Source: Bacillota bacterium (GTDB lineage Bacteria > Bacillota > Sulfobacillia > UBA3575 > DUQP01). From it: 64,000 nucleotides of DNA. A program made the position numbers and the translations under genes. Each line of letters opens with the position of its first letter. Position 1 is the first letter of the stretch. The stretch spans positions 16,581 through 80,580 of the forward strand of contig DUQP01000031.1 in NCBI GenBank assembly GCA_012837735.1, written 5' to 3'. Positions 26,786 through 45,316 of this stretch are shown here, in pieces. Below the pieces are notes generated by a model. The model was given only the letters and a program-made list of their open reading frames with translations, was not told where the DNA came from and did not search any database.

Positions 26786-28942
26786 GTGGGGGAAGGAGGA
26801 ACCGTCATCGTGCGCGGCACGGTGGAAAGGGTGACATTCGAGCAGCCTGACTCAGGTTGGGCGGTGCTGAGAATCAGCGGGCCGGAGGGCCTGTACACGG
26901 CGGTGGGGAATCTGGCCGGTTTGAGCGCCGGAGAGGAAGTGGAGCTACAGGGCGAGTGGACAAGCCATCCACGCTTTGGTCGCCAATTCAAAACTACTTC
27001 TTTTCGCACGATTCTACCGGTGACGACAGCCGGGATGAAACGCTTCTTGGCTTCAAACCTCGTGAAAGGAATCGGTCCGCAGTTGGCGGAAGCGATCGTG
27101 GCCAGGTTTGGTCAGGATACACTACGGGTGATCGAACAGGAGCCGCAGCGCTTGAGTGAGGTGGAGGGGATTGGTGCCGCCCGCATCGCGGCCCTGCGGC
27201 AAGCCTGGGATGAACAAAAGACATGGCGGGAACTGATGGTGTTCTTGCAGGGCCTTGGCATCAGCCCCGGACTAGCCTTCAAGATTTGCCGCCGCTACGG
27301 GCAAGGTGCCGGGGCGGTGGTCCGGCAAGACCCGTACCGGCTGGCGCGGGAAGTGCGCGGGATTGGTTTTGCCACTGCCGACCGCGTGGCGTCCTTAGTG
27401 GGTGTGGGGCCGAAGGCGACGGCGCGCGCCGCCGCCGGACTAATCCACGTTTTGGAAACGGCGCTGGAGGCCGGTCACACCGCCTTGCCGCACATGGAGC
27501 TTTTGACGCGCACCGCCGAACTCCTGGCATGGCAGGAAGCAGAACTGATCCCGGTATTGGAGCACATGGTGCAAAAAGGCGAACTAAGGCGGGAGTTTGC
27601 CGCCTTGCCGGCCGGCCCTTATATTTACTTGCCGCAGTTTGCTCGTGCGGAAGCCCAGGTTGCCCAGCGGGTGATGGAATTGCTGGCTGCCCCCCCGGGC
27701 CTATGGCACGGTCCGCCGCAAGGGGAGGAATTATCTTTGTTGGCGGCCCTTTCGCCGGAACAGGCCACAGCCGTTCGTACCGCTTTGACGGAGCGACTGA
27801 CGGTCATCACCGGTGGCCCGGGCACAGGCAAGACCACCACCATCCGGACCCTGCTACAGATCGCCACCGGCCGGAAAGCGCGCGTTTTGCTGGCGGCTCC
27901 CACCGGGCGCGCTGCTAAGCGCCTGTCCGAGGTGACTGGTGCCCCTGCCAGTACATTGCACAGAATGCTGGAGTTGCGCCCGCAAGCCCCATCAGAACCG
28001 GGACGAATTCTTGCCGCTGAGATGGTGATCGTGGACGAGATGTCCATGGTCGATTTACCGTTATGCGATCAACTGTTGCAGGCGGTTCAGCCAGGCACGC
28101 ACCTGGTGTTGGTTGGGGATGTGGATCAGCTCCCGCCGGTGGGGCCCGGGCAGGTATTGAAAGACCTGATTGACAGTGCTAGAGTGCCGACGGTGCGGCT
28201 GCGGACCATTTTCCGGCAACGGGAGGCGAGCGGCATTGTGACGAACGCCCACCGCATTAACCGCGGCCAGCTCCCGTATTGGGGCAAGTCAGCGCCGGAT
28301 TTTTTCTTCTTTTCCGCCCAGGATGCCGAAACCTGCGCCGGAATCATCACTGCCCTGGTGACAGAGCGTATTCCCCGCCGGTTTGGCATCCCACCGGAGC
28401 AAATCCAGGTGTTGAGCCCCGTGCACAGGGGTGTGGCCGGCGTGCAAAGTTTGAATCAGCGCCTGCAAGAAGCGCTTAACCCTGCCCGGCCGGGTTTGCC
28501 CCAGTTGCCCAGCGGCGGTAGCACGTTTCGGCCTAATGACAGGGTGATCCAAGTGGTGAACAATTACCAAAAAGAGGCCTTCAACGGAGACCTGGGATGT
28601 TTGACCGCTGTCGATCCCACCGCCCGGCGCCTGCAGGTGTCGTTTGACGGCGGGCCCCCGGTTTCCTATGAGGCGACCGAGTTGGATGAATTGATGCTGG
28701 CCTATGCCATTTCCGTGCACAAGAGCCAGGGCAGCGAATACCCGGCGGTCGTGCTGCCGGTGATGTGGATCATGCCTGCCATGATGACCAGGCGCCTGCT
28801 TTATACCGCTGTGACGCGCGCTAAGCGCCTGGTGGTGCTGGTGGGGAATGTCGGGGCGCTGAAAAAACATGTTACAAATGATGCCCAGGAAATCCGCTTT
28901 GGCCATCTCGCCCACCGCCTGGCCATGGTCGGTGGCCAGTGA
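26786..28942 (+). CDS. recD2: ATP-dependent RecD-like DNA helicase (RecD2/YrrC, SF1B)
   Basis: N-terminal OB/HhH region, Walker A GGPGTGKTT, VDEMSMVD, SVHKSQGSEY; RBS AGGAGG. Confidence 0.9.
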   Translation: MGEGGTVIVRGTVERVTFEQPDSGWAVLRISGPEGLYTAVGNLAGLSAGEEVELQGEWTSHPRFGRQFKTTSFRTILPVTTAGMKRFLASNLVKGIGPQLAEAIVARFGQDTLRVIEQEPQRLSEVEGIGAARIAALRQAWDEQKTWRELMVFLQGLGISPGLAFKICRRYGQGAGAVVRQDPYRLAREVRGIGFATADRVASLVGVGPKATARAAAGLIHVLETALEAGHTALPHMELLTRTAELLAWQEAELIPVLEHMVQKGELRREFAALPAGPYIYLPQFARAEAQVAQRVMELLAAPPGLWHGPPQGEELSLLAALSPEQATAVRTALTERLTVITGGPGTGKTTTIRTLLQIATGRKARVLLAAPTGRAAKRLSEVTGAPASTLHRMLELRPQAPSEPGRILAAEMVIVDEMSMVDLPLCDQLLQAVQPGTHLVLVGDVDQLPPVGPGQVLKDLIDSARVPTVRLRTIFRQREASGIVTNAHRINRGQLPYWGKSAPDFFFFSAQDAETCAGIITALVTERIPRRFGIPPEQIQVLSPVHRGVAGVQSLNQRLQEALNPARPGLPQLPSGGSTFRPNDRVIQVVNNYQKEAFNGDLGCLTAVDPTARRLQVSFDGGPPVSYEATELDELMLAYAISVHKSQGSEYPAVVLPVMWIMPAMMTRRLLYTAVTRAKRLVVLVGNVGALKKHVTNDAQEIRFGHLAHRLAMVGGQ

Positions 28943-29628
28943 TGCGCGCGGGCATTGGCAGCCAGGTGTGGAGTGGGATTGTCAGTTTGGTTTTTCCTGT
29001 CCGCACCACTTGTTGGGGATGCGGCGGGGAACTGGCGGCACAGGAGCCCTTGTTCTGCCTTGTTTGCCGGCAAGGCTTTGCCGCCGGCCTGGCCGGCTGG
29101 GACTTGACAGATGACTTGATCGCCCGGGCCTGGGCCGTGGGGCCTTATCAAGGCGGGCTGCGCCGCGCTGTCCTGGCATACAAGTATAGCGGCAAAGAGT
29201 ATCTGGCGGAACCTTTGGGCCGGTTGCTGGCCGCCCGCTTGGCAGGGGCGGTTCCCGGGTCGTGCCAGGTGATCCCGGTCCCATTACACCGCACCAGACG
29301 CCGGCAAAGAGGTTTCAACCAGGCAGAGGCCTTGGCCCAAGTGTTAGGAAAGGAATTGCGGCTACCGGTGCGGGCGGATATCCTCGTGCGGCGTCAGGCC
29401 ACGCGCCCCCTTAGTACACTTAATCACGATAATCGCCACCAGGAGTTGCGCGGGGCATTCCATGTCGCCTGGCCGGGTTTGCCGGGGACCCCGGTTTTGC
29501 TGGTGGATGATGTTGTGACAAGTGGTGCGACCGTGCACGAATGCGCGGGGGTCTTGCGGGCCGCTGGTTATGGGCCGGTGTATGTAGCGACAGTTTGTGC
29601 TGTTACGGATAATTGCCAAAGAGCTTAG
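28939..29628 (+). CDS. comFC: ComF family protein (ComFC-like phosphoribosyltransferase)
   Basis: N-terminal Cys cluster CWGCGG...CLVC, PRTase motif VLLVDDVVTSGAT. Confidence 0.85.
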   Translation: MMRAGIGSQVWSGIVSLVFPVRTTCWGCGGELAAQEPLFCLVCRQGFAAGLAGWDLTDDLIARAWAVGPYQGGLRRAVLAYKYSGKEYLAEPLGRLLAARLAGAVPGSCQVIPVPLHRTRRRQRGFNQAEALAQVLGKELRLPVRADILVRRQATRPLSTLNHDNRHQELRGAFHVAWPGLPGTPVLLVDDVVTSGATVHECAGVLRAAGYGPVYVATVCAVTDNCQRA

Positions 29629-29733
29629 TTTTTTCCACAGGTTGGGCAGGAAAAAAACGCCTTGTGACGAATCGTATAATTGGTCTTATTCAGGATTGGG
29701 TATCTCATAGATTTGTACCTTGTTGTTCTGATG

Positions 29734-29777
29734 GTGTTGCCGGATCCCTCCGGCAGCACCATTTTTCGCGTTTTTTT
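29734..29777 (+). terminator. rho-independent terminator downstream of comFC
   Basis: 11-bp stem GTGTTGCCGGA-tccc-TCCGGCAGCAC then CATTTTTCGCGTTTTTTT. Confidence 0.8.
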
Positions 29778-29988
29778 AACATTTAGCGGGACAACGACTG
29801 ACGGGAAACGACAATCCACAAAATAATCCCCAGCCTAAACCCCTGGAAACGGTGTTATTAACAGACTTATCCACATAATACACAAGCATTTTTATCCCCA
29901 GCCTGGGTTTATCCCCTGCAACTTCACATAATATTGGATCACCCAAATAGCCTCTGTCGAAGCATGACATTTGGAGAAGGCAGGATTC

Positions 29989-30018
29989 TCTTGCCAGGAA
30001 GCGGAATACTATTATTAT
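29989..30018 (+). promoter_or_regulatory. candidate sigma-A promoter for hpf (TTGCCA ... TATTAT)
   Basis: -35 TTGCCA 29989-29994; overlapping TATTAT hexamers at 15 or 18 nt spacing; about 25 nt upstream of the hpf RBS. Confidence 0.35.
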
Positions 30019-30045
30019 CAGTCCACGCCGGAAGGAGATGAGACT

Positions 30046-30561
30046 GTGCAGATTAACATCCGGGGCAAGAGCATTGATATCACGCCTTCTTTGCGCGCGT
30101 ATGTCGAGAAGAAGGTGGGCAAAATCGGCAAGTATTTCGCAGGACTGGATCTCAACTGTCAGGTTGCTTTGAGTGTTGAGAAGGACCGCCACATTGTCGA
30201 GGTCACATTGCCTGTAAACGGTTGGCTGCTGCGCGGTGAAGAGGAAAGCGAGGATATGTACAGTTCCGTGGATTTGGTGGTCGATAAGCTAGAGCGTCAG
30301 ATCCGCAAGTATAAGACTCGTTTGAATCGCAAGTTGCGGCGGATGGAAAAACCGGAGGTGCAGGCGGTGCCGGATGACGATCAGCAGGTCGTGAAAATCA
30401 AACGCTTCACGTTCAAACCGATGCCCGTCGATGAAGCGATCATGCAAATGAACATGTTGGGGCATGATTTCTATGTGTTCACCAACTCCGAAAGTGAACA
30501 AATCAATGTGCTCTACCGGCGGCGTGATGGCAACTATGGTTTGATCCAGCCAGATTTCTAA
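30046..30561 (+). CDS. hpf: ribosome hibernation-promoting factor (long HPF, YvyD)
   Basis: VQINIRGKSIDITPSLRAYVEKKVGKIGKYF N-terminal domain plus C-terminal dimerisation domain; GTG 30046 after GGAAGGAG (ORF track's upstream extension is unlikely). Confidence 0.9.
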   Translation: MQINIRGKSIDITPSLRAYVEKKVGKIGKYFAGLDLNCQVALSVEKDRHIVEVTLPVNGWLLRGEEESEDMYSSVDLVVDKLERQIRKYKTRLNRKLRRMEKPEVQAVPDDDQQVVKIKRFTFKPMPVDEAIMQMNMLGHDFYVFTNSESEQINVLYRRRDGNYGLIQPDF

Positions 30562-30574
30562 GCCCGACCAGGGG

Positions 30575-30602
30575 CGGGGGGCAGCATGCCCCCCGTTTTT
30601 TA
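30575..30602 (+). terminator. rho-independent terminator after hpf
   Basis: CGGGGGGC-agcat-GCCCCCCG-TTTTTT. Confidence 0.8.
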
Positions 30603-30622
30603 TTATGTGGGGAGTGAAGCCG

Positions 30623-31750
30623 ATGGGAACGGGTGTGCTGCTACTGGAGGGCGGGTCGGCCTCTGGTGAGGTGGACTCCACATTGCAGGCGCTGCGGCGA
30701 GCGATTGCCATGGATACCCTGATAAATTGGTTGACGGTACCGGGTACGCAGGTGGTTCTGGCCAGCGGTAATCGGCAGCTACTACAGGCGGCGGAAAAAT
30801 TGGGGGCCGGCAGGTACGATACCGGGGGCGGGCCGTTCAGGCTGTTGGATACGCTGCGCGCGGTGCTGCAAGAGCAGAAATGGCAAAGGGTCCTGTGCAT
30901 GGGCGGCGCCGCGGCCCCATTGGCCACCCGGCAGGATTTGACGGAAATTCTGGGCATGTTGCAGGCCGCACCGGAACCGGCTGTGTTGATGAACAACCCG
31001 CTCTCAGCGGATATCGTCGGCTTTTCGCCCACCAGTTGCCTGGCGGGGATCCAAGCGGCCGGTTGTGACAACGACCTGGCTTTTCAACTTTGTCATATCG
31101 GATTACGCCGGGTGCTGCTGCCCCCGGAACCGCGCTTGACCTTCGATCTCGATACCCCGAGCGATGCTCTGCTGTTGCAGTGGTTGGTCGAGCGCGGGCA
31201 GCCGGTCGGGGAACGGACGAGACAGGCCTTAGCTGGCCTGCCCTGGGATGGCTGGCGGCTGCAGGCGGCGGTGGATGTTTTGGCCCGCCCGGGGTGTGAA
31301 GTGGCTTTGCTGGGCCGGGTTGGGCCAGGGGTGGTGAGTGAGATTAACCAGCGTCTCCAGTGCCGGTTACGGGTTTTTTCGGAAGAACGGGGCATGAAGG
31401 CCCTGGGGCGACTGGCGTCCCGGTCGGTGACGTCTCTGCTTGGCCATTATTACCAGGCGGTGGGGGGAGCGGAGTTTTTCCGTGCCCTGGGGCAGGTGGC
31501 GGATGTGGCTTTTTTCGATACCCGGGTATTGTTGGCCCATTTGGGATGCTACGTTGAGGCAGAACAGCGCTTTTGTTCCGACCTGGGCTGGTGGCGGGAA
31601 ATCACCCATCCGGGGCTGCGGGAGTTCACGCGGCTTGCTTGGCAAACGGAGGTGCCGGTCGTTCTGGGGGGACATTCACTGGTGTCCGGCGGTCTCCGTC
31701 TGTTGGTGGCCACACTGCCGGCCGGGCGGGAAAGGAATTCGCCCGAATAA
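30623..31750 (+). CDS. hypothetical protein: N-terminal MobA/CofC/DUF2064-like nucleotidyltransferase fold plus about 190-aa C-terminal domain of unknown function
   Basis: pattern ...DTLINW...VVLASGN...VLCMGGAAAPLATRQDL...FDLDTPSDA (the terminal D-x-D-T-P-x-D is typical of MobA-like NTP transferases); GGGGAG 7 nt before ATG 30623. Confidence 0.5.
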   Translation: MGTGVLLLEGGSASGEVDSTLQALRRAIAMDTLINWLTVPGTQVVLASGNRQLLQAAEKLGAGRYDTGGGPFRLLDTLRAVLQEQKWQRVLCMGGAAAPLATRQDLTEILGMLQAAPEPAVLMNNPLSADIVGFSPTSCLAGIQAAGCDNDLAFQLCHIGLRRVLLPPEPRLTFDLDTPSDALLLQWLVERGQPVGERTRQALAGLPWDGWRLQAAVDVLARPGCEVALLGRVGPGVVSEINQRLQCRLRVFSEERGMKALGRLASRSVTSLLGHYYQAVGGAEFFRALGQVADVAFFDTRVLLAHLGCYVEAEQRFCSDLGWWREITHPGLREFTRLAWQTEVPVVLGGHSLVSGGLRLLVATLPAGRERNSPE

Positions 31751-31762
31751 AGAGAACCCGTA

Positions 31763-32242
31763 TTGGAGAACTATTCCAGTACGGGCGAGGTGATCCGGGT
31801 GGTTTATGCCGTAGGGGCTTTCCTATTGGCATTGATCGGAGCTTGGTTGCGGGGCGGCAGCTTTCATAACCTGCGTTTTTTGGAACTGGAGCGGGCTGGC
31901 TTTTTCCTGGCGGCCCTTTTGCTGCAGTTGGTTTTGTGGCTAGGGGCACCGTATTTCAATGAGCGAATTGCGACTTGGCCGGCCTGGATGCTCGGCATCT
32001 CCTTGCTATCGTACTTATTTTTGTTTGTGGCTTTGGCCAGTAACGCCCGTATCCCGGGCATGAAGCCGCTTTTCCTGGGCTGCGTGCTGAAATTGGGAGA
32101 GATGCTGGCCAAGAATTGGGCATACCAACTATGGTTGGAACGGGTGGGGGATGCGGTAATCATCATCGGTTTGGCGGTGTTCGTGCATCAGGCTCTCATG
32201 GGGCCGCCCAGCCGGCGCCGGAGCGCAGTGCGGAGTGTTTGA
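31763..32242 (+). CDS. hypothetical small integral membrane protein (4-5 TM)
   Basis: 159 aa, hydrophobic helices; 12 nt after the preceding gene; TTG start; no family recognised with confidence. Confidence 0.45.
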   Translation: MENYSSTGEVIRVVYAVGAFLLALIGAWLRGGSFHNLRFLELERAGFFLAALLLQLVLWLGAPYFNERIATWPAWMLGISLLSYLFLFVALASNARIPGMKPLFLGCVLKLGEMLAKNWAYQLWLERVGDAVIIIGLAVFVHQALMGPPSRRRSAVRSV

Positions 32243-32267
32243 CCCCCTCCCCCGTGAGAGTTATAAT
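32239..32267 (+). promoter_or_regulatory. sigma-A promoter for thiT-thiN(-secA): TTGACC-17 nt-TATAAT
   Basis: -35 TTGACC 32239-32244 (contains the stop codon of the upstream gene), -10 TATAAT 32262-32267, exact 17-nt spacer. Confidence 0.6.
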
Positions 32268-32303
32268 GGTCTGTGGTAGGAATAGCGGGGAATCACGAAC
32301 TTT

Positions 32304-32338
32304 AGCACGCCTTCAAAAGAAGGCGTGTTGCCATCTTC
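32304..32338 (+). promoter_or_regulatory. leader hairpin (possible attenuator) in the thiT 5' UTR
   Basis: 9-11 bp stem (A)GCACGCCTTC-aaaa-GAAGGCGTG(TT) followed by TTGCCATCTT; lies between the promoter and the RBS GAGGAGGG. Confidence 0.35.
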
Positions 32339-32362
32339 CGCGCCACCCGAGGAGGGCGAACA

Positions 32363-32911
32363 ATGAAAAATGACCGACAAAGCGGCCGTCGCAGCCGTGG
32401 CCTGCCCACCAGGGCGTTGGCAGAGGCCGGCGTGATGCTGGCGCTGTCCACTTTTTTGAGTTTCATCAAGATTTGGGAGTCACCCCAGGGTGGAGCTGTC
32501 ACCCTCGGCAGCATGATTCCGGTTTTGGTATTTGCATTGCGCTGGGGTGTGCGGCCGGGGTTTCTGGTCGGTGCCCTGCATGGTGTGATCCAATTCCTCG
32601 TGGCCCCATTTTTCTTCCATCCCATCCAGGTATTGCTTGATTATCCGATCGGGTTTGGAATGCTGGGATTGGCCGGCGCTTACCGACGCTATCCGGCCCT
32701 GGGGGTCATCATAGCGGTGGTCGGGCGCCTGGCGGCCCATGTGTTGGCGGGGGTGGTCTTTTTTACCTCTTTTGCGCCTGAGGGCGTTAACCCCTGGATT
32801 TATTCCACCATCTATAACGGCACATTCCTGTTGCCGGAGCTGGCCATCAGTCTGGTGGTGGTGTTCGTACTGGGTTTGCTGCCGGCGCTGCGCCGGATTG
32901 ATGCGCTGTAA
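32363..32911 (+). CDS. thiT: ECF-transporter S component, ThiT/YuaJ-like (thiamine)
   Basis: 182 aa, 6 TM; QGGAVTLGSMIPVLVFALRWGVRPG, HPIQVLLDY, RLAAHVLAGVVFFTSFAPEGVNPWIYSTIYNGTF closely parallel B. subtilis YuaJ as recalled from memory; followed by a thiamine pyrophosphokinase gene. Confidence 0.65.
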   Translation: MKNDRQSGRRSRGLPTRALAEAGVMLALSTFLSFIKIWESPQGGAVTLGSMIPVLVFALRWGVRPGFLVGALHGVIQFLVAPFFFHPIQVLLDYPIGFGMLGLAGAYRRYPALGVIIAVVGRLAAHVLAGVVFFTSFAPEGVNPWIYSTIYNGTFLLPELAISLVVVFVLGLLPALRRIDAL

Positions 32912-32926
32912 GCTGGGGGGATAGTA

Positions 32927-33598
32927 ATGGACCTGCACGGGAAAAGGGTCGTGGTTTGTGTCAATGGCCATTGGGAGCATTTAGTGCAGACGGGCTGGCA
33001 GCGCCAGCCGGATGATTTTGTGATTGCGGCCGACGGCGGCTATTATTTGGCCAAAGCCCTCGGTTTGGAATTGGATTTGCTGATCGGGGATTTTGATTCA
33101 TTGCCGGCGGAATTGGTCCGGGAGTTGGCCCAGACCGTCACAGTGATCCGGTTTCCGGTCGCAAAGGACATGACTGACCTGGAATTGGCCATGGATTGGG
33201 CATTGGCCCGCGGTTGCCGGGAGATTTTGGTGCTGGGCGGTCTGGGCAAGCGCTTGGACCACACTCTGGGCGGGATCTGGTTATTGCCGCGCTGGGTGCG
33301 CGCCGGTGTGCCGGTGATGTTCTGGGATCCCTCTTGCACGGTGACCGCGGCCGAGAAAGAAGTCGTCTTGACCGGGCAAGCAGGTGACATACTTTCCCTT
33401 TTTCCCGTCACCCAGCTGGTGGAGGGAATAGAAACCCACGGGTTGAAGTATCCGCTGGTGAACGGTCGTTTGCGGTGGGGTGAAACCCTCGGTGTGAGCA
33501 ATGAGTTTCAGCAAGCCACCGTGCGCGTGACCTGGCGGCGGGGAATCTTGCTGGCAGTGCACTGGCACCTGGAAAGGGGAGCACAAAGCAGTGATTAA
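32927..33598 (+). CDS. thiN: thiamine pyrophosphokinase (thiamine diphosphokinase)
   Basis: TPK motifs [22 protein letters not shown], plus C-terminal thiamine-binding domain. Confidence 0.8.
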
Positions 33599-36185
33599 TA
33601 TTTTTCGCGGCCTGTTCGGCGGCTTCAATGAAAAGGAGTTGAAACGGATCGGCCGGATCGTGGAGCAGGTGAATGGCCTTGAACCCGAAATCAGAGCGCT
33701 TAGCGATGACGATCTGAAGGCACAGACAGGGCGCTTCCGGGACCAACTGGCCAACGGCGCGACTCTCGAGGATATCCTGCCGCGGGCGTTTGCGGTCGTC
33801 CGCGAGACGGCCTGGCGGGTTCTGGGAATGCGCCATTTCGATGTCCAAATCATGGGCGGCGTTGTCCTGCATGAAGGCAATATCGCCGAAATGAAGACCG
33901 GGGAAGGGAAAACGCTCGTGGCCACCCTGCCGGTTTATCTGAATGCGCTCACGGGCAAAGGCGTCCATATCGTGACGGTGAACGACTACCTGGCGCGGCG
34001 CGACAGCGAGTGGATGGGCAAGGTATACCGGTTCTTGGGCTTGAACGTCGGTTTGATTGTGCACGGCCTGACATTTGCGGAGCGACGGGCCGCGTACCAG
34101 GCGGATGTCGTGTATGGGACGAATAACGAGTTTGGGTTTGATTATCTGCGCGACAATATGGCTATGCACCCGGATGAGATCGTGCAGCGCCCTTTGCACT
34201 ACGCCATCGTGGACGAGGTGGATAGTATTTTGATCGATGAGGCCCGGACCCCATTGATCATTTCTGGCCCCGGCGACAAGTCTACGGACCTTTACTACAA
34301 ATTCGCCCGCTTGGTGGCCGGCATGCGGCCGGAGGTGGATTACACAATAGACGAGCAGGCGCGGAGCGTGGTTCCGACGGAAATGGGGATCGCCAAGGCG
34401 GAAAACATGTTGGGTGTGGCTAATCTTTATGAAGGCGAGCACATGGACCTGGCCAACTACCTGAATCAGGCACTCAGGGCCAAGGCTTTAATGAAGCGCG
34501 ACCGGGATTATGTGGTGAAAGACGGCCAGGTGATCATTGTGGACGAGTTCACCGGCCGGTTGATGTTTGGTCGCCGCTACAGCGGCGGGTTGCACCAGGC
34601 GATTGAGGCCAAAGAAGGAGTCAAGATTGAGCGCGAAAGCCAGACGCTGGCCACCATCACATTCCAAAATTATTTCCGGATGTATGAGAAGCTGGCCGGG
34701 ATGACCGGCACGGCCCTCACCGAGGAAGAAGAATTCCGCAAAATCTACGGCCTAGATGTGGTCGTGATACCGACTAATATGGAGATGATCCGCCAGGATC
34801 TGCCGGACCGGGTCTATAAGACTGAGCGGGGCAAATTTGCGGCGGTGGTGGAAGATATCGCCGCCAGGCACGCCACGGGCCAGCCGATCCTGGTCGGCAC
34901 GGTTTCGATTGAAAAGTCGGAGCAGCTGAGTGCCCTGTTAAAGAAACGCGGTATCAAGCATCAGGTTTTGAATGCCAAGTATCACGAAAAGGAAGCGGAG
35001 ATCGTCGCCCAGGCGGGCCGCCTAGGTGCCGTCACGATCGCCACCAACATGGCCGGGCGGGGGACGGATATCATGCTGGGCGGAAACCCGGAGTTTTTGG
35101 CCCGCCAGCGGTGGGAGGCGGACGGCGCGGATGAAGACGCTTACCCGCGGTACCTGGCCATTGCCCAGCAAGAGACAAAGCAGGAGCATGAGCAGGTCGT
35201 GGCTTTGGGCGGTCTCCACATCGTAGGTACAGAACGCCATGAAAGCCGGCGCATTGATAACCAGCTGCGTGGTCGCGCCGGTCGTCAGGGCGACCCGGGT
35301 TCTTCCACGTTCTATGTCTCCCTGGAGGACGATCTGATGCGCCTGTTCGGGTCGGACAACCTGAAGGGCTTGATGGAGCGGCTGGGCATGCAGGATGACG
35401 AGGCGATTGAACACAACATGGTCACCCGGGCGATCGAAAACGCTCAGAAAAGAGTTGAGGCGCGCCACTTCGACCTGCGCAAGCACATCCTTAATTATGA
35501 CGATGTGATGAACAAACAGCGCGAGGTGATCTATGACCAGCGCCGGCGCGTGTTGACCGGAGACAATTTGCGGGACTTGATCATGGAAATGGTGGCGGAT
35601 GTGCTGGCGGAGCTGCTGGACATTTACTGCCCGGAAAAGGAAAGCCCGGAGGATTGGAACTTCAGCGGGCTGTTGGAAAACCTGCAGGTTTTATTCCTGC
35701 CGGTCGATGCTGTGACAGCGGACGATTTGGCCGGCTTTGGGCGGGCCGCTCTGCAGGAGCACTTGTTTGCCCTGGCCGAACGGCGTTATGCCGAACGGGC
35801 GGAGGAATTTGGGGACGAAACGATGCGGGCCTTGGAGCGGATGGTTTTGCTGCGAGTGGTTGACCAGAAATGGATGGACCACTTGGATGCGATGGATGAC
35901 CTACGCGAGGGGATTGGGCTGCGTGCGATCGGCAACCGGGATCCGCTGATTGAATACAAGCTAGAAGCATACGAGATGTTCCAAGCGATGGTCCAGAGCA
36001 TCAGAGAAGATGTGGTGCGCTATATCTACCGGGTGAGTGTGGTGCGGGAACCGGAGCGCCGGCAAGCCCAGGAAAATCGGGCTGCTGCGCCGGTGGCCAG
36101 CCAAGAGCCGCGCGTTGGTCGCAACGCACCTTGCCCATGTGGCAGCGGCAAGAAATATAAAAAGTGTTGCGGTAAGGTGAGCTAG
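33591..36185 (+). CDS. secA: preprotein translocase ATPase SecA
   Basis: N-terminus [20 protein letters not shown], Walker [13 protein letters not shown]-like VDEVD, C-terminal zinc-binding [17 protein letters not shown] start overlaps the thiN stop by 8 nt. Confidence 0.95.
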
Positions 36186-36199
36186 AGGGGGATGGGGCA

Positions 36200-37307
36200 T
36201 TGTACGAGGAGTTGCAGCGGCAGATCAGCGACCTGGAAAAGACGTTAAAAGAAATCGGTGATTCACTTTGACCCGGTTGGGCGGGCCAAGCGCGTGGCTG
36301 AGCTGGAAAACGCGATGGCCAGACCGGATTTCTGGGATGACAACCAGGCCGCCCAACGGCTGGTGCGGGAGCTGTCTATGGCGCGCGGGCCATTGGAGGA
36401 ATACCGGGCTTTGCAGGCCCGTTGGGAAGACGTGCGGGTTTTGCTGGAGCTAGCGGTGGAAGAGGACGATGACTCCGTTATTGTGGAGATTGCCCGGGAA
36501 ATTAAGGATCTCACCGCGGCCTGCCATGACCTGGAGTTGAAGGTGCTGCTGAAAGGTGAGTATGACAACCACAACGCTATTTTGGCCCTGCATGCCGGTG
36601 CCGGTGGCACTGAGGCCCAGGACTGGGTGGCGATGCTGTACCGGATGTATAGTCGCTGGGCGGAGCGGCATGGCTACCGGTTGCAGGTATTGGATTTGCT
36701 GGAGGGCGAAGAGGCCGGTCTGAAGAGCGTGACGTTCCTGGTGGAGGGTGATTGGGCCTACGGGTTTCTCAAATCGGAAAAAGGCGTGCATCGCCTGGTG
36801 CGCATATCGCCTTTTGATGCCTCCGGGCGCCGCCATACGTCCTTCGCTTCCCTGGATGTGCTGCCGGAAATCCAGGACGACGAGCAGGTGGAGATCAATT
36901 CCGAGGAACTGCGCATCGATACGTTCCGAGCCGGGGGCGCCGGCGGGCAACATGTGAATAAGACGGACTCGGCCGTGCGGATTACCCATTTGCCGACCGG
37001 GATCGTGGTGAGTTGCCAGAATGAGCGTTCCCAGCACGCTAACCGTGAGGCCGCCATGAAGATCTTGCGGGCTCGGTTGGCGGAAAAGCGAAGGCAAGAA
37101 CAGGAAGCGGAACTGGCCAAGCTGCGTGGTGAGCAGATGGAGATCGCCTGGGGCAGCCAGATCCGCTCCTATGTCTTCCAGCCATATACCCTGGTGAAAG
37201 ACCACCGCACAAATGTGGAGATTGGCAATGTCCAGGCGGTGATGGACGGAGACCTGGATCAGTTTATTTATGCTTTTTTGCAAAAGCAGGCTGCCTCAGC
37301 CCATTAG
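36200..37307 (+). CDS. prfB: peptide chain release factor 2, with programmed +1 ribosomal frameshift at CTT TGA C (36266-36272)
   Basis: frame 0 TTG 36200 encodes MYEELQRQISDLEKTLKEIGDSL then the UGA stop; the +1 frame continues DPVGRAKRVAELE...SPGQ-context, GGQ motif (AGGAGGQHVNKT); internal SD-like GGTGAT 3 nt upstream of CTT. Confidence 0.9.
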
Positions 37308-37391
37308 CGGCAGATCCTGGAAAGGAATCAAACGCCTATTGCCGAAACATTAGGCAACGTGCCGGAGTGTGAGCCGGAGGGGGGCACGAAC

Positions 37392-38117
37392 ATGAAGAGG
37401 TTTCTGGTTGGCTTGCTGATCTTGGTGGTGGTGTTGGGGGTCGGGACTGAACTTTTCCTGCCCAGAGCGGTGGAGCGCGGGGTTACGGCCGCTTTGGCCA
37501 GGGCGACCGGTGAGCAGGACTTGGCCGTCTTTTTGGAAAGCCACCCGGTCTTGCGGATGATGTTAGGCGAGTTCAGTACGGTGACGGTGGAAAATACTGA
37601 TGTGTCTGTGGATGGCCTAGCTTTTCAGACTGTCGCCACCACATTGCAGCAGGTGCGCATGAACTTGGAGCAGCTCTTGCAGGAAAGACAAGTCTCGGCA
37701 GGCCGGGGCCGCCTGCAGACTGTTTTCCGGCTCAGCGCCACCGATATTGAAAACCACCTCCTGGTGCGGATCCCGAACCTGCAAGCCGCCGAGGCGGCGC
37801 TGCTGGACGACAGGATATTGGTTGATGGCACATTTGCGTTAGAGGGAGGGCGACAGCTGCATTTCAAGACCGTCAACAGTCTGCAACAGCCCGATGAAAC
37901 TCATTTGGCTTTGACGGTGGAACAGATGTGGCTGAACGACGTGGCGATTGCTCCGGAACTCGCTCGTGACCTGGTGGAGTTCTTCGCTCCGGAACCACTG
38001 GCAATCGATTTTGGCGCTTTCCCCGTGCCCCTGAAAATCACGGACGTGCAAATGGATGCCAGGGCGATCGTAATCACCGCCCAGGAGCAGGTAGGGCAAC
38101 AGGAGGATGTTAGGTGA
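37392..38117 (+). CDS. DUF2993/LmeA-like envelope protein
   Basis: N-terminal TM then a repeated beta-rich organisation similar to LmeA-family proteins; GGAGGGGGG 7 nt before ATG 37392. Confidence 0.55.
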   Translation: MKRFLVGLLILVVVLGVGTELFLPRAVERGVTAALARATGEQDLAVFLESHPVLRMMLGEFSTVTVENTDVSVDGLAFQTVATTLQQVRMNLEQLLQERQVSAGRGRLQTVFRLSATDIENHLLVRIPNLQAAEAALLDDRILVDGTFALEGGRQLHFKTVNSLQQPDETHLALTVEQMWLNDVAIAPELARDLVEFFAPEPLAIDFGAFPVPLKITDVQMDARAIVITAQEQVGQQEDVR

Positions 38118-39299: not shown

Positions 39300-39320
39300 G
39301 AGTAGTGTATAATGGTGAGG
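39300..39320 (+). promoter_or_regulatory. candidate promoter with extended -10 TGTATAAT for the downstream envelope operon
   Basis: TG-TATAAT at 39306-39313; poor -35; about 65 nt upstream of RBS GGGAGG and ATG 39387. Confidence 0.35.
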
Positions 39321-39386
39321 GAGAGGAATGTGGGCCTACCCGGTCCGGCGACTGGACGGGGTATGCCGGTGTGCGGGAGGTTGTTT

Positions 39387-41459
39387 ATGGGTCGTGGCCA
39401 GACCATCATGCTGTGGCTGATGATCGCCGTTGCCCTGGGGGCGGCCGGCGTTACGTTTGTTATGCGGGAATGCGCCCTGGGCGACAGCGCACAAATTGAA
39501 CTGGCATTGGACTATGATCACACCGCGCGCTATGTCAGGCAGCAGGGAATGGATCTGGATACATTTCTGTCCGGTATGCGTGAGGCGGGCATCACCACCG
39601 CTGTGGTGGGTGAGATGACTTTGCGGGAATTGGCGGAGGAGGGCCGGGTGGCCCTGATTGATGGCAGTAGTTACCGGGACATTGCCAGGATGTTTCCTGC
39701 TGGCAGTGTTCCCGCGCTGCATAGCGGCAACCTGGTGGTTTTGGTGCCGGAGCAGGAACTGTGGGTTGAATTGCTGCCGGCTTTGCGTACGCGTTTGGGG
39801 CTGGAGCGGGTGACACCGCTGGCGGACCAGGCCATTTTGATCGCCAGGCAACCGGATGAGCGGGAAGAAGAAGAGGCGGAAATCTTGCGCCGCACCCCTT
39901 GGACGGACGGCGAGCTGCTCGATCTCGGTCTGGGCCTGGATAGAAAGTCCCTGCGGATCGCGCAAGCGCATGGTCTGGCGGTCCTGGCTTACGTGGCCGA
40001 TTATCCGGGCGCCGGCCCGGAGGCGGTGACGGATCTGGCCAACCGCTTGCAAGGGGTGGCCTCCGTTTCCGGAGTGATGTTTTCAGGCGACTCCGTGCTT
40101 GGTGGGGCGGCAATTCGGGCCGAATTGGCGCAATTGCTTACAGACCGCGGTTGGTATTTAGCCTTTATGGAACATAAAGAGCAGCGGGGTCTGGACGAAT
40201 TGGCCAATGCCGTGTCTTATCGGGCCGTCAAGCTGCATCATGCTTATCGTGGCGAACCTTTGGATTACGTGCGGGCCGCCGTCCGGGAACGGCATGTGCG
40301 CATGCTTTATTTCCGGCCAATTGTCTCCGGGGCCGGGGGGCGTGACTTGCTGACATATAACCAGGAATATGTGACGAGGATCGTAAACGCCCTGACTACC
40401 TGGGGATATCGGACCGGGCAGGCAGAACCCTTGCCCCCGTTCACTGTCCCGAAATGGGCCCAGACGCTCCTGATCGGGGGAGTGGCGGGCGCCTGGATAT
40501 TGTTATGGAACAGATGGTGGCAAAAGGACTGGCATCCGGTCATGTTCATGGTGGTCCTGGCGGGGGTATACCTGGGCGGTTACGCTTTGCTGAGTAGCCC
40601 ATTGGCCAATCAAATGCGGGAACTGGCTGCCTGGTGCGCGGCGGTCGGATTCCCCGTGCTGGGCCTGTCCGGTTTGGTGGCCAGGCAAAAGTTGCTTGGG
40701 CGCCAATTCGGGTTTTGGGCACCGGGCCTTGCCCGGGCAATGGGTGATTTGCTTTTGGTAAGCCTGGTGACGGTCAGCGGCGGCCTGTTATTGAACGCCC
40801 TTTTGGGTGACAGCCGCTATGTTCTGCAGCTGGATCAGTTCCGCGGTGTAAAGCTGGCTCTGGCACTGCCCCCAGTTGTGATGGCGGGTTTGTTCTTTTT
40901 GCAGACCGATATCAGTCCGGCCGGTGGACAAGCGGTGGCCCGCAGCCCCTGGCAGCGGCTGTCCCGGTTTGGGAAAGACCTGTGGTCACTCCCCTTAACG
41001 TATGGCTTAGTGGTGGGGGCGGCGGCCGCTTTGCTGATCGCGGCTGTGATTTTGTTGCGGGCGGGCAATTTCCCCTTGATTCCCATTCCGGATCTGGAGG
41101 TGGCGATGCGGGATCTGCTCAGCCAGGCCCTGGTGGTGCGCCCGCGCACAAAGGAGTTTCTGTTTGGCCACCCGGCCCTGTTGCTGGCCGCTTACTTGGG
41201 GTTGTTCTACCGCGGCCGCTACCAGGTCATTTTTTTGGGGCTGGCGGCCATCGGACAAGCCTCGGTGGCCAATACGTTTTCCCATATCCACACCCCGCTC
41301 GTGTTCAGCCTGTGGCGGACATTTAACGGGCTGTGGCTGGGGGCAGCGTTGGGGGTGGCCGCAGTGGGGGTCATGATCGGTCTTTATTATTGCGGTCGAA
41401 ATTGGCGGACCAGCCTGGCTGGCTATATTTGCGATGACGGCGGGGGTGGGCGGGAATGA
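39387..41459 (+). CDS. large polytopic membrane protein, paralog A (possibly DUF5693-like); uncharacterised
   Basis: N-terminal TM, about 330-aa extracytoplasmic domain, about 10-TM C-terminal domain with conserved motif VRPRTKEFLFGHPALLLAAYLG. Confidence 0.7.
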   Translation: MGRGQTIMLWLMIAVALGAAGVTFVMRECALGDSAQIELALDYDHTARYVRQQGMDLDTFLSGMREAGITTAVVGEMTLRELAEEGRVALIDGSSYRDIARMFPAGSVPALHSGNLVVLVPEQELWVELLPALRTRLGLERVTPLADQAILIARQPDEREEEEAEILRRTPWTDGELLDLGLGLDRKSLRIAQAHGLAVLAYVADYPGAGPEAVTDLANRLQGVASVSGVMFSGDSVLGGAAIRAELAQLLTDRGWYLAFMEHKEQRGLDELANAVSYRAVKLHHAYRGEPLDYVRAAVRERHVRMLYFRPIVSGAGGRDLLTYNQEYVTRIVNALTTWGYRTGQAEPLPPFTVPKWAQTLLIGGVAGAWILLWNRWWQKDWHPVMFMVVLAGVYLGGYALLSSPLANQMRELAAWCAAVGFPVLGLSGLVARQKLLGRQFGFWAPGLARAMGDLLLVSLVTVSGGLLLNALLGDSRYVLQLDQFRGVKLALALPPVVMAGLFFLQTDISPAGGQAVARSPWQRLSRFGKDLWSLPLTYGLVVGAAAALLIAAVILLRAGNFPLIPIPDLEVAMRDLLSQALVVRPRTKEFLFGHPALLLAAYLGLFYRGRYQVIFLGLAAIGQASVANTFSHIHTPLVFSLWRTFNGLWLGAALGVAAVGVMIGLYYCGRNWRTSLAGYICDDGGGGRE

Positions 41460-43453
41460 AGGGCATAAACCAACCCATACAAATCGGTCTGGTATTAATC
41501 CTGGTTGTTTCCCTTTTAGCGGGCCTGTGGGTGTTCTATGGCCGGGCGGTGGACGAAGGGAGTGCCGACAGCGTCGCTCTGGTGGTTGACCTGAATGAAA
41601 TATCAGTCCTGGCCCGGGCTGCCGGGCAGGATCCCGCCAGCATGTTGGCCAGTATCAAGGAGACGGGGGTAACGGCGGTGGCAGTGCCGGAAAAGACCCC
41701 GGCCGCCTTGCATGCGGAAGGGCGCCTGTCACTGTTCAGCGGTGAAGAGCTGCTGGTGTTGCTGCGCTTGACGGACCGACTTGGTTGGCCGGCGGATCTT
41801 GATCCGGCCCGCATCAAACCGGAATACACCTATTTGCATGTGACTGAGGATGAGTTGATAAAGCAGGTGCGGGATGCCCTGGTCAGGCGCGTGGAAGAGG
41901 TTCAGGAGTACCAGCTGGGGGGCGGAACGCTGTTTGTAGTGGCGGCCGCCAAAGAAGACGTCGCTGCGCTTGGATTGGGCATTTGGCCGGTGGACGTGGC
42001 AATGGTAAATGGGCTCGGATTGGCCGTCATTCCCCGCTTGCAGAACCTGCCGGATGTTTCCGCCCAGGAGGTCAGTCAGGCCTTTAGCGGTTTTCAGGCC
42101 GGGACGGTGGTGTTTGCCGGCAGTGAAGTGCTGGGTTATCCGCATCTAATTGGCCACACCGCCAAGGTGATGCGCGCGCAAGGGCTACACTTGGGTTTAA
42201 TCGAGAATTGGAGCCAGACCGGCTTTTTGGATCAGGCTGGTGGGCGCCAACTATATGATGAGCTGGGGGAAGAGGTCGTCCGGGTTTATAGCATTGAAGA
42301 AAGCAAGCAAAAGGCGCGCGCACCGGACGACGTGGTTGATATCTGGGCCAGGGCGGTGCGGGAGCGCAAAATCCGCCTGCTTTATTTGCATCCGTTCTTC
42401 CATACGGCAGATCCGGTCGCCGATACATTAAACAGCTTTCGTGAGCTGTCAGAGAGGCTCGCTGCGGAAGGATTCGTGGCCGGTAATCCTGCTCCCTTGC
42501 CGGTGGGGGAAAGCCACCGCGGGGCGGATCTCCTGTTGGCCTGGGGAGTGGCGGCAGCGGGGCTATTGTTGTTGCAACTGCTTTGCCCATTGGCGCCTGG
42601 ACCTAGGTTGATTTTCAGCGGGTTGGCTTTCCTGGCGGTGACTGGTTTGCTGTTCCAGGGCCCATTGGGCAGACAGCTTTTGGCGTTGGGGGCGGCGATC
42701 GTCTTTCCGGCTTTGGCCGTTTTGTCCCAGGTTCAGACCTGGCCCATCAAGGCCATCTGGGGTGGGTTCACTGCCCATGCCGCCCGGGGTGTGGTCGCCC
42801 TAATTTCCGCCAGTGCCATCTCTTTGCTGGGGGGACTGCTCGTGGCCGGGATCTTGACGCAACCCGACTACTTGAATGGCTGGCAGGTATTCCGTGGCGT
42901 GAAAATTTCGCTCCTTTTGCCGCCGCTGTTGGTCCTGGTGGCTGTGCTGACAGCGCCGCTGGGACCCGGGGAAGCGCCTAGCCTGCGGGCGGCTTGGACG
43001 CGCTTGCGCGGCTATCTGATGCGCCCGTTGGCGCTGGGGGAAGTCTTTGTACTCATGCTGATCCTGCTGGCCGCCTTTTTATATGTTGCGCGCAGTGGCA
43101 CGATTTTGCCCGTGGCGGGTTTCGAATTGGAGGCGCGCTCTTTTTTGGAGAGCGTTTTCGGGGTCCGACCGCGCACGAAGGAGTTTTTGATCGGACATCC
43201 CGCCCTGTTTTTGGCAGCTGTGGCGGCCAGCCTCCGGCGTGTCGACTTAGCCAGCCTGTTAGCAGTAGCTGGTGCCATTGGCCAGGTATCGATCGTGAAC
43301 TCGTTTGAACATTTGTTCACCCCTGTGGTGCTGTCATTGCTGAGAGGGGCCAATGGCCTCACCCTCGGTTTGGTGGTCGGTTTGGCGGTCACCGCTGTGC
43401 TGTGGCCGTTCATCAGGACGGCCCGCCCGGCGCCATGGGAGAAGGAGAGTTGA
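41456..43453 (+). CDS. large polytopic membrane protein, paralog B (tandem duplicate of the upstream gene)
   Basis: same architecture and conserved motif VRPRTKEFLIGHPALFLAAVAA plus FRGVKISLLLPP / FRGVKLALALPP; ATGA overlap with paralog A. Confidence 0.7.
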   Translation: MKGINQPIQIGLVLILVVSLLAGLWVFYGRAVDEGSADSVALVVDLNEISVLARAAGQDPASMLASIKETGVTAVAVPEKTPAALHAEGRLSLFSGEELLVLLRLTDRLGWPADLDPARIKPEYTYLHVTEDELIKQVRDALVRRVEEVQEYQLGGGTLFVVAAAKEDVAALGLGIWPVDVAMVNGLGLAVIPRLQNLPDVSAQEVSQAFSGFQAGTVVFAGSEVLGYPHLIGHTAKVMRAQGLHLGLIENWSQTGFLDQAGGRQLYDELGEEVVRVYSIEESKQKARAPDDVVDIWARAVRERKIRLLYLHPFFHTADPVADTLNSFRELSERLAAEGFVAGNPAPLPVGESHRGADLLLAWGVAAAGLLLLQLLCPLAPGPRLIFSGLAFLAVTGLLFQGPLGRQLLALGAAIVFPALAVLSQVQTWPIKAIWGGFTAHAARGVVALISASAISLLGGLLVAGILTQPDYLNGWQVFRGVKISLLLPPLLVLVAVLTAPLGPGEAPSLRAAWTRLRGYLMRPLALGEVFVLMLILLAAFLYVARSGTILPVAGFELEARSFLESVFGVRPRTKEFLIGHPALFLAAVAASLRRVDLASLLAVAGAIGQVSIVNSFEHLFTPVVLSLLRGANGLTLGLVVGLAVTAVLWPFIRTARPAPWEKES

Positions 43454-43454
43454 G

Positions 43455-44549: not shown

Positions 44550-45292
44550 ATGATTTGGCCAGGAGGCGGGTCGATCTCCTCGGTGTGCCGGTGGATGCCG
44601 TCACGATGGCGGAGGCATTGCATTGGGCGCTGGAACAATTGCCCACAGGAGAGACCAACCTCATTTTTACTCCCAACCCGGAGATAGTGTATCGGGCGTG
44701 GCATGATCCGGTCTTTTACCAAGCCCTCACCAGCGCCGACCTATTGGTGCCGGATGGGATCGGGGTGGTATGGGCGGCGGCCCGCCTGGGCCAGCCGGTA
44801 CCGGAACGGGTGCCCGGTTACGATTTGATGATTCATCTACTTGCTGCGTTGGCGAGGCGCCACGGCAGGGTGTTTTTCCTGGGCGCCAGGCCGGAGGTGG
44901 TGCAGGCTGCCGCCCAGGTAGCGTCCCGGCGCTGGCCAGGCCTGGTGGTGACAGGTTATCACCACGGCTACTTCCAACCCGGGCAAGAGGAGCAAGCGGT
45001 GCTCCAGAAAATCCGCGCTGCCGCCCCCGATTTATTGTTGGTGGCGCTGGGGGCCGGCAAACAGGAAGAATGGCTGGCCTTTCATCGGGCGGAATTGCAG
45101 GTGCCGCTGGCCATCGCGGTCGGGGGCAGCTTTGATGTCCTGGCAGGGATCACTCAGCGGGCCCCCACCTGGATGCAACGCCTGCATTTGGAATGGTTGT
45201 ATCGGTTGTTGCGGCAGCCCAGCCGGTGGCGCCGGATGCTGGCTTTACCCCGGTTTGCCTGGACCATCATCAAGGCTGGGGCAAAAAGATAG
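44546..45292 (+). CDS. tagA: WecG/TagA/CpsF-family glycosyltransferase (N-acetylmannosaminyltransferase)
   Basis: GVPVDAVTMAEAL...IFTPNPEIV...LVPDGIGVVWAA...FFLGARPEV GT26 motifs; ATGA overlap with csaB. Confidence 0.85.
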   Translation: MNDLARRRVDLLGVPVDAVTMAEALHWALEQLPTGETNLIFTPNPEIVYRAWHDPVFYQALTSADLLVPDGIGVVWAAARLGQPVPERVPGYDLMIHLLAALARRHGRVFFLGARPEVVQAAAQVASRRWPGLVVTGYHHGYFQPGQEEQAVLQKIRAAAPDLLLVALGAGKQEEWLAFHRAELQVPLAIAVGGSFDVLAGITQRAPTWMQRLHLEWLYRLLRQPSRWRRMLALPRFAWTIIKAGAKR

Positions 45293-45316
45293 TGGTTGTA
45301 GGGAGGAATGTACTAA

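Follow-up and report, generated by a model that had tools for sequence, protein, structure and literature searches.

In the stretch of Bacillota DNA analysed here (contig DUQP01000031.1 of assembly GCA_012837735.1, positions 16,581 to 80,580; 64,000 nucleotides (nt), hereafter the window), four genes stand between hpf, which encodes a long-form hibernation-promoting factor (HPF), and secA: two open reading frames (ORFs) designated ORF1 and ORF2, followed by thiT and thiN. With a probability of roughly 0.65, we read this interval as a composite of three independent layers, namely a conserved pair of hpf and ORF1, a remnant gene for a truncated DUF5317 protein (ORF2), and a thiT-thiN pair placed before secA in this lineage only. 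The point of interest is the conserved hpf-ORF1 pair, and not the four-gene set or its coupling to secA, on both of which a first-pass annotation, made from the sequence alone, had dwelt. That annotation took the four genes for a single insertion and considered a place for ORF1 and ORF2 in thiamine or cofactor metabolism; the linkage of hpf with ORF1 was not among its proposals.

Conservation of the hpf-ORF1 pair

A scan of one genome per GTDB species returned 512 loci encoding a relative of ORF1, the best 80 of which were fetched and had the window proteins mapped onto them. In 78 of these 80 loci ORF1 is immediately preceded by hpf on the same strand; as for the other two, the upstream side of L032 is too short to judge, and in L015 unrelated ORFs, in place of hpf, occupy the sequence ahead of a B12/radical-SAM gene and ORF1. 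The gap between the two genes has a median of 46.5 nt across the 78 loci and shrinks to 1-5 nt in several of them. How unusual is such tightness in this part of the genome? Junctions shorter than 300 nt were seen in 5% of the loci between comFC and hpf, in 90% between hpf and ORF1, in 7% between ORF1 and secA, and in 94% between secA and prfB. Since the hpf-ORF1 junction is tight whereas those on either side of it vary, the pair must have been kept while both of its flanks were repeatedly remodelled, and it was kept even in relatives whose ORF1 is only ~40% identical to the window copy.

The conserved linkage is that of hpf with ORF1. The idea of a single four-gene insertion does not survive this comparison, given that ORF1 follows hpf almost throughout and that thiT or thiN was found in none of the loci (0/80); what relatives carry between hpf and secA upholds the first of these linkages and makes the adjacency of the four genes look accidental. 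The pair was met in Symbiobacteriaceae, Fermentithermobacillaceae, Dethiobacteria, metagenome-assembled genomes (MAGs) labelled Syntrophomonadaceae, NPL-UPA2 and Ca. Acetocimmeria, and the cultured Symbiobacterium terraclitae displays the order metK...comFC...hpf-ORF1-secA. In a more distant member (L081), hpf is followed by two MFS fragments, ORF1 and then secA-prfB. Genes for the molybdenum cofactor (Moco) or for F420 were found among the neighbours neither in the window nor in the 80 loci, and cofD/fbiA, cofE and fbiC were absent from the neighbourhoods examined.

Two peculiarities of individual lineages may be recorded here. NPL-UPA2-type genomes feature a gene for a B12-binding radical SAM protein immediately upstream of ORF1. 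In Natranaerobius thermophilus (L087; CP001034, 2352717-2364114), the ORF1 homolog has 465 amino acids (aa) and an N-terminal extension of ~140 residues without a Pfam match, and hpf is closely preceded by genes for a PAS-GGDEF-HD_5 protein and a cold-shock protein.

ORF1 and its protein family

ORF1 represents an uncharacterised two-domain family of deep-branching Bacillota with a uniform architecture. A protein search recovered 337 relatives, the best 120 of which are ~345-410 aa long, cover at least 91% (mostly at least 94%) of the query and carry no precomputed Pfam domain, the sole exception being P0060 (PF12804). One entry, from a 'Firmicutes bacterium' MAG, is 100% identical to ORF1, and the next-best match stands at 45-46%; a close relative of the window organism was not found in the databases, the best non-self identity being 45-46% for ORF1 and 44% for ThiN. 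When 1.84 billion representatives were searched exhaustively with a profile, 780 matched at E<=1e-3, 317 of them at E<=1e-30, and most of the 150 matches listed are proteins of 355-410 aa that match the profile from end to end, the exceptions being short entries of partial coverage (265-310 aa) and a few extended forms of 423-465 aa. Some members (L015, P0128) possess a C-terminal TrkA_C domain.

Several family members go by the database name 'CTP:molybdopterin cytidylyltransferase MocA' (JGI, NCBI) and one by 'CobY/MobA/RfbA family'. Membership of ORF1 in the MobA/MocA, CofC or DUF2064 families found no support in domain searches, which the first-pass annotation had recommended. Pfam and NCBIfam scans assigned the window protein to no family, and PADLOC returned only noise (e.g. 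CruG at E 0.13). PF12804 matches 8 of 37 aligned members (best E 6.1e-07) and does not match window ORF1 at E<=1; the one score listed, that of the L015 member, is sub-threshold at 18.6 bits against a gathering score of 27. DUF2064 matches a single member of the 37 weakly (E 0.013), and neither Pfam CofC nor the NCBIfam equivalog matches the window protein or any of the 37. In a sequence-profile search of the PDB, full-length ORF1 gave only sub-threshold matches to KdsB, and its C-terminal domain gave nothing meaningful.

What the sequence profiles miss, the predicted structure brings out. The AlphaFold2 model computed from the family alignment (pLDDT 93, pTM 0.91) confirms, at the level of a model, an N-terminal domain with an FbiD/CofC/MobA-like nucleotidyltransferase (GT-A-like) fold, and a fold search ranks FbiD/CofC best and matches MobA as well; the nucleotidyltransferase-like fold foreseen in the first-pass annotation is thus borne out. 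The C-terminal domain, which had gone unrecognised there, remains so after fold and profile searches and is modelled as an orphan Rossmann-like alpha/beta domain that has no solved relative.

The family alignment contains 40 invariant columns. In the N-terminal domain these comprise E9-G10-G11, N124-N125-x-x-S128-x-D130, D149-N150 and D175-x-D177-T-P-x-D181, and in the C-terminal domain G231-R232, R250, S253-E-E-R-G257-x-K259, R263, D299-x-R301, R316, D320 and G349-G350-H351. The canonical loop of MobA/MocA that binds the nucleoside triphosphate (NTP) near the N-terminus reads LAGGxGxR(M/L)G. In a comparison by motif with this loop, the E9-G10-G11 that comes after strand 1 of ORF1 is not followed by G-x-R. 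The metal site of FbiD consists of three Asp residues (D116/D188/D190); compared with it by motif, ORF1 has invariant D175 and D177 (FDLDTP) and an Ala at the strand-4 position. Throughout the family this Ala stands where the acidic residue after strand 4 would be, at a site that reads G-D-x-P in canonical enzymes, while the later FDLDTPxD is kept; in a sub-threshold hidden Markov model (HMM) alignment, GGAAAPL of the family faces QGDEP of KdsB. A rearranged active site might be completed by E9, which is invariant, together with several of the Asp and Asn residues. Among the 37 aligned proteins none diverges further than the window copy, which is changed at 12 of 91 near-invariant positions (median 2), the loss of the family HFG motif (H73R, F74L, G75L) included, and which keeps every invariant residue.

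Layout of the window and start codons

The gene order on the + strand is recD2-like helicase, comFC, hpf, ORF1, ORF2, thiT, thiN, secA and prfB, and all four ORFs of the interval are present in the ORF list as first described. The features are as follows.

26786-28942, + strand: recD2-like helicase (ORF)
28939-29628, + strand: comFC (ORF)
30046-30561, + strand: hpf, long-form hibernation-promoting factor; mechanical ORF from TTG 29971 (PF02482 and PF16321, TIGR00741, Shine-Dalgarno sequence)
30570-30600, + strand: intrinsic-terminator-like hairpin, GC-rich stem followed by T6 (terminator scan and folding)
30623-31750, + strand: ORF1, 375 aa (ORF)
30623-31192, + strand: N-terminal domain of ORF1, ~residues 1-190, predicted FbiD/CofC/MobA-like nucleotidyltransferase (GT-A-like) fold
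31205-31750, + strand: C-terminal domain of ORF1, ~residues 195-375, predicted orphan Rossmann-like alpha/beta domain
31763-32242, + strand: ORF2, shortened DUF5317 membrane protein, 159 aa (PF17248 and syntenic profile)
32239-32267, + strand: near-consensus sigma-70-type promoter, TTGACC-17 nt-TATAAT (promoter scan)
32303-32330, + strand: 12-bp hairpin in the thiT leader, lacking a U-tract (folding)
32363-32911, + strand: thiT, thiamine-specific S-component of the energy-coupling factor (ECF) type (PF09515, TIGR02357)
32927-33598, + strand: thiN, thiamine pyrophosphokinase (TPK) (PF04263, PF04265, TIGR01378)
33591-36185, + strand: secA, GTG start (ORF, N-terminal sequence, junction, matches in relatives)
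36200-37307, + strand: prfB, release factor 2 (RF2) with programmed +1 frameshift, start TTG 36200 (sequence and translation)

Several of the start codons deserve comment. The true start of hpf is likely GTG 30046, which stands behind a GGAAGGAG Shine-Dalgarno sequence. For ORF1 the best candidate is ATG 30623 with a GGGGAG Shine-Dalgarno sequence 8 nt upstream; the alternatives at 30605 and 30614 fall within or directly after the T-run of the terminator, and the GenBank annotation (P0001) takes GTG 30614, which yields 378 aa. ORF2 has been drawn from TTG 31763, 12 nt past the ORF1 stop codon, where the start signal is poor; GTG 31799 is probably its start, being preceded at 6 nt by a GAGGTG Shine-Dalgarno sequence and agreeing better with the N-terminus of the family.

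Two regions outside the interval were also noted. The 417 nt upstream of hpf (29629-30045) are AT-rich (GC ~0.47 compared with ~0.60 in the surroundings), contain two weak promoter-like sites and probably constitute the hpf regulatory region. Farther downstream (39312-47082), genes for a polysaccharide pyruvyl transferase and a WecG/TagA glycosyltransferase accompany a tandem pair of DUF5693 paralogs of 715 and 665 aa, and the same stretch encodes a transketolase dependent on thiamine pyrophosphate (TPP) that is split into N and C halves encoded by separate genes.

Transcription signals around ORF1

The hpf product contains both domains of a long HPF, the S30AE N-domain (PF02482, E 3.7e-30) and the C-terminal dimerisation domain (PF16321, E 8.6e-29), and scores 97 bits with TIGR00741 against a cutoff of 41. 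Directly 3' of its stop codon, the terminator scan located the hairpin at 30570-30600 with a 14-pair stem, which folds at -29.4 kcal/mol and includes an 8-bp G/C stem followed by U6. A terminator-like hairpin occupies the hpf-ORF1 gap in 24 of 78 relatives and likewise in the window. ORF1 starts 23 nt past the end of the window hairpin, and a promoter scan of 8 kb revealed no promoter-like site on the + strand before it. With a strong hpf terminator so close in front and no promoter-like site to itself, ORF1 is most likely expressed by read-through. Such an arrangement would provide abundant, stoichiometric HPF together with a low, catalytic amount of ORF1 under common stationary-phase or stress control. 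Being made from hpf transcripts, at a level below that of HPF where a terminator intervenes, would mark ORF1 as a protein of stationary phase or stress.

The strongest promoter-like site of the scanned 8 kb, TTGACC-17-TATAAT with 11 of 12 consensus matches, lies over the stop codon of ORF2. Taken together, these predicted signals suggest hpf(-ORF1-ORF2 via read-through) and thiT-thiN-secA-prfB as the likely transcription units.

ORF2 and the interval between ORF1 and secA

Among the tests suggested for ORF2 in the first-pass annotation, the one for DUF5317 came out positive, if only just, with PF17248 itself (25.2 bits vs a cutoff of 25) and clearly with a profile built from 35 syntenic DUF5317 proteins (E 7.5e-22). 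ORF2, which has four hydrophobic segments by hydropathy, aligns to positions 5-94 and 159-182 of this profile and lacks positions 95-158, i.e. ~64 central ones. In relatives, the commonest content of the ORF1-secA interval is X216 (46/80), then a ~420-aa HD-GYP-type membrane protein with MASE9 and HD_5 (46/80), and then a ~190-aa DUF5317 protein (35/80). X216, a protein of ~216 aa encoded directly after ORF1 in most relatives (e.g. L037 11187-11837), belongs to no Pfam or NCBIfam family, its LeuA_dimer matches being sub-threshold only. The DUF5317 gene begins a few nt after the HD-GYP-type gene and ends shortly before secA. The tight pairing of the HD_5 and DUF5317 genes recurs in 35 of the 80 loci (e.g. 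L037 12112-13927) and suggests that DUF5317 may be a dedicated partner of HD-GYP-type, phosphodiesterase-like proteins. We found no paper mentioning DUF5317 in a literature search.

No homolog of X216 or HD_5 occurs within the 64-kb window. Considering the profile match, the missing centre and the absence of X216 and HD_5, ORF2 would be the shortened survivor of a module rather than a partner of ORF1, and it is best read as what is left of the X216 / MASE9-HD-GYP / DUF5317 module found ahead of secA in many relatives. The window lineage displays its divergent ORF1 alongside the absence of the X216 and HD-GYP genes and a truncated DUF5317.

This module is not the only filling of the interval. 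In Dethiobacter-type loci (13/80) its place is taken by hisD, hisB and a HAD-family gene, and in a few genomes secA comes directly after ORF1. The set of hisD, hisB (IGPD) and a 400-aa HAD gene was seen in L030, L047, L048, L050, L052, L056, L058, L064, L066, L077 and L078, with hisB not detected in L047. A defence-system reading was rejected, the PADLOC matches reflecting generic HD-domain similarity in the relatives' HD-GYP protein.

The thiT-thiN pair and its junction with secA

The identities given to thiT and thiN at the outset stand. ThiT matches PF09515 at E 1.8e-46 and TIGR02357 with 132.2 bits (cutoff 108.45), and ThiN matches TIGR01378 with 154.7 bits (cutoff 76.4) as well as PF04263 and PF04265, its catalytic and B1-binding domains. 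An ECF energising module was not found among the ten other window genes annotated. The closest ThiN homolog outside the source MAG is 44% identical, and three of the nearest homologs are encoded in the context prpC-prkC-rsgA-rpe-thiN or among unrelated genes, never beside thiT or secA. These contexts, along with the lack of both genes from the 80 ORF1 loci, mean that the thiT-thiN-secA arrangement is seen only in this lineage. By this comparison, thiT-thiN is a lineage-specific thiamine-salvage pair set directly before secA, an ordinary add-on.

The 8-nt overlap of the thiN stop codon with the secA GTG start, an element of the initial description, can be read directly from the sequence at 33591-33598, where AGC AGT GAT TAA in the thiN frame becomes GCA GTG ATT AAT in the secA frame; the secA Shine-Dalgarno sequence, GGAAAGGGGAG, is located inside the thiN 3' end. 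Matches to secA in relatives show 51-74% identity, and there secA begins ~15-60 nt after the DUF5317 gene, as estimated from coordinates; tight packing before secA is normal in this clade. In prfB, the short frame-0 ORF that opens at TTG 36200 reaches the shift site CTT TGA C at 36266-36272, beyond which the main ORF continues in the +1 frame, an ordinary arrangement for RF2; the mechanical ORF 36258-37307 misses the true start.

The promoter at 32239-32267 is the probable driver of thiT-thiN-secA-prfB. The leader that follows it is 95 nt long, and its segment 32274-32362 folds at -33.7 kcal/mol (z -2.66). The leader contains a 12-bp hairpin (32303-32330; GCACGCCUUC-AAAA-GAAGGCGUGU) without a U-tract, which could stabilise the RNA or act as a novel regulatory element. 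An Rfam scan of 28500-37500 at E<=1 found no match, nor did one of the entire window at gathering score; these empty scans led us to reject a TPP riboswitch or any other known leader before thiT. Firmicute thiT is reportedly usually under the control of a TPP riboswitch. Why, then, would this copy do without one? The overlap with thiN fuses the pair to secA, such that secA-prfB are probably transcribed from the thiT promoter, too. With secA overlapping thiN and prfB next in line, both secA and prfB would come under thiamine control if a terminating riboswitch stood here, and this plausibly explains why none is there; the lack of a riboswitch and the near-consensus promoter plausibly fit a constraint imposed by the downstream secA-prfB.

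Why does ORF1 stay beside hpf?

What kind of protein might be held so firmly next to hpf? In analogy with every one of its structural neighbours, the N-terminal domain of ORF1 would bind an NTP, probably GTP or CTP, and the basic C-terminal domain, with its many invariant Arg, Lys, Asp and His residues, might bind a phosphorylated ligand or a macromolecule, or perform a second step. Our working model sees in ORF1 a possible enzyme or sensor that depends on a nucleotide and has a function connected with HPF and dormancy. Beyond this general outline, specific proposals become tentative. It is unlikely that ORF1 acts directly on HPF or ribosomes, and somewhat less so that the pairing reflects co-regulation in dormancy with no direct contact. 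Equally speculative is the notion that the family serves as an accessory factor of ribosome hibernation in deep-branching Bacillota, co-transcribed with long HPF; if so, and we consider this version no more probable, ORF1 would modify or regulate HPF, the 100S ribosome, or entry into or exit from dormancy by means of a rearranged nucleotidyltransferase site and a new phosphate-binding domain.

A number of observations weigh against the composite reading or against a functional bond of ORF1 with hpf. The loci inspected are the best 80 out of 512. Five have a gene-sized gap of 1.1-1.5 kb between hpf and ORF1; the gap is filled by the B12-binding radical SAM gene in L003, L012 and L026, and in L015 (1787-4468) such a gene, coding for 443 aa, abuts the ORF1 start. 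An S58 peptidase gene on the opposite strand separates hpf from the ORF1 homolog in N. thermophilus, and the divergent member L090 adjoins recR, with hpf absent nearby. The link between ORF1 and HPF is one of synteny, and it lies inside the ancient comFC...hpf...secA-prfB block; the promoter, the read-through at the terminator and the translational coupling are predictions. Since the canonical strand-4 Asp is Ala in all members, catalysis by ORF1 is uncertain, and the window copy, with its altered HFG motif, is the most divergent of the sample.

Some of these same observations nourish the strongest alternative, a minority view with a substantial chance of being correct, by which the adjacency is merely inherited gene order and ORF1 a housekeeping or metabolic enzyme that happens to sit in a slowly rearranging block. 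The antiquity of the whole block is in its favour, as are N. thermophilus, which keeps the position with the operon broken, L090, and the hairpins that part hpf from ORF1 in close to a third of the loci and in the window. However, mere inertia does not readily account for flanking junctions that vary so much while hpf and ORF1 stay tightly joined at ~40% ORF1 identity, nor for the half of the gaps below 47 nt, some of 1-5 nt, that leave no space for independent transcription signals. Far less credible, at the other extreme, is the idea that all four genes were inserted as one functional unit in which ORF1 and ORF2 serve thiamine or related cofactor metabolism. The genes are indeed adjacent on the same strand with small gaps, and the N-terminal fold does resemble the cofactor-pathway enzymes FbiD/CofC and MobA; yet ORF1 does not travel with thiT or thiN, the nearest ThiN homologs never sit beside ORF1, thiT or secA, a strong predicted promoter parts ORF1-ORF2 from thiT-thiN, and the ORF2 family pairs with HD-GYP proteins in relatives. 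By such comparative data this proposal, including the metabolic role once suggested for the first two genes, appears already largely refuted.

Two further alternatives concern the chemistry of ORF1. Improbable, though better placed than the four-gene unit, is a genuine MocA/MobA, or a CofC/FbiD guanylyltransferase of an F420-type pathway: the database names, the fold search and the sub-threshold PF12804 matches speak for it, but window ORF1 matches no family HMM and other members stay below the gathering threshold, the acidic residue after strand 4 is replaced, an extra conserved domain of 180 aa is attached, and Moco and F420 genes are missing from the neighbourhoods of window ORF1 and its relatives. 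More probable than this, while still unlikely, is a catalytically dead pseudo-nucleotidyltransferase that functions only as a sensor of a nucleotide ligand or as a scaffold. No member retains the metal-binding Asp that canonically follows strand 4, only E-G-G seems to be left of the Gly-rich loop, and the TrkA_C domain fused to some of them is a regulatory ligand-binding domain. Against this, the forty invariant residues, among them D130, D149, D175, D177 and E9, resemble a preserved active site, in which the invariant Glu of the N-terminal loop could substitute for the missing Asp.

Novelty and significance

To our knowledge, ribosome hibernation through long HPF is usually regarded, in Firmicutes, as the work of a single protein. 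A literature search combining HPF, nucleotidyltransferase and operon yielded only irrelevant results, and a 2025 preprint on how hibernation factors evolved describes no hpf-linked partner of the ORF1 type. What is new in the ORF1 family is a nucleotidyltransferase-fold protein with a new domain combination and a conserved association with hpf. As genome rearrangements, thiT-thiN-secA and the leftover DUF5317 gene are of an ordinary kind. If true, the existence of a conserved, enzyme-like operon partner of hpf across several hundred species would suggest that a regulatory or chemical step has so far escaped study. The family is well defined and experimentally approachable, and the evidence for its role stands at the level of synteny. 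For annotators there is reason to drop the 'MocA' label, and a new Pfam entry could be considered for the family and its C-terminal domain. The fusion of thiT-thiN to secA offers an example of how gene placement before essential genes possibly constrains regulation, as in the absent TPP riboswitch. None of this bears on a long-standing open question, and its value is moderate.

Comparison with known systems

The synteny yvyD(hpf)-secA-prfB is established for B. subtilis. The window agrees with this type in keeping recD2-comFC-hpf...secA-prfB on one strand, with the +1 frameshift site in prfB, and differs from it in that the clade consistently has an ORF1 insertion immediately behind hpf, with a variable set of genes filling the space from ORF1 to secA. 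Within the clade, ORF2 matches the DUF5317 half of the relatives' MASE9/HD-GYP (HD_5) + DUF5317 pair at both ends and occupies the same ORF1-secA interval; unlike these relatives, the window has neither the HD-GYP partner nor X216, its ORF2 is short of ~64 central profile positions, and thiT-thiN intervene before secA, which DUF5317 directly precedes elsewhere. As to the salvage genes thiT (yuaJ) and thiN of Firmicutes, the window pair exceeds the curated cutoffs for ThiT and TPK, but it lacks the TPP riboswitch, has a near-consensus, constitutive-looking promoter and overlaps secA through thiN, and the nearest ThiN homologs are encoded in different surroundings (prpC-prkC-rsgA-rpe-thiN, for example).

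The N-terminal domain of ORF1 shares its predicted fold with FbiD/CofC (M. tuberculosis Rv2983, PDB 6bwg/6bwh; the 3-phospho-D-glycerate guanylyltransferase 7p97; MM2497, 2i5e). In contrast to these enzymes, to which it is only 13-18% identical and has no match at the HMM level, ORF1 carries Ala for the strand-4 Asp, possesses an additional conserved domain of 180 residues and is linked to hpf, not to F420 genes. With MobA/MocA (NTP_transf_3, PF12804), which window ORF1 does not match, it has the GT-A-like alpha/beta nucleotidyltransferase fold in common; it differs from them in having the LAGGxGxRMG loop apparently cut to E-G-G, missing the D-x-P motif, being double the size and lacking a molybdenum-cofactor gene context. 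From the nucleotidyltransferase-fold proteins of the DUF2064 / TIGR04282 type (PDB 3cgx), finally, ORF1 differs in both architecture and gene context.

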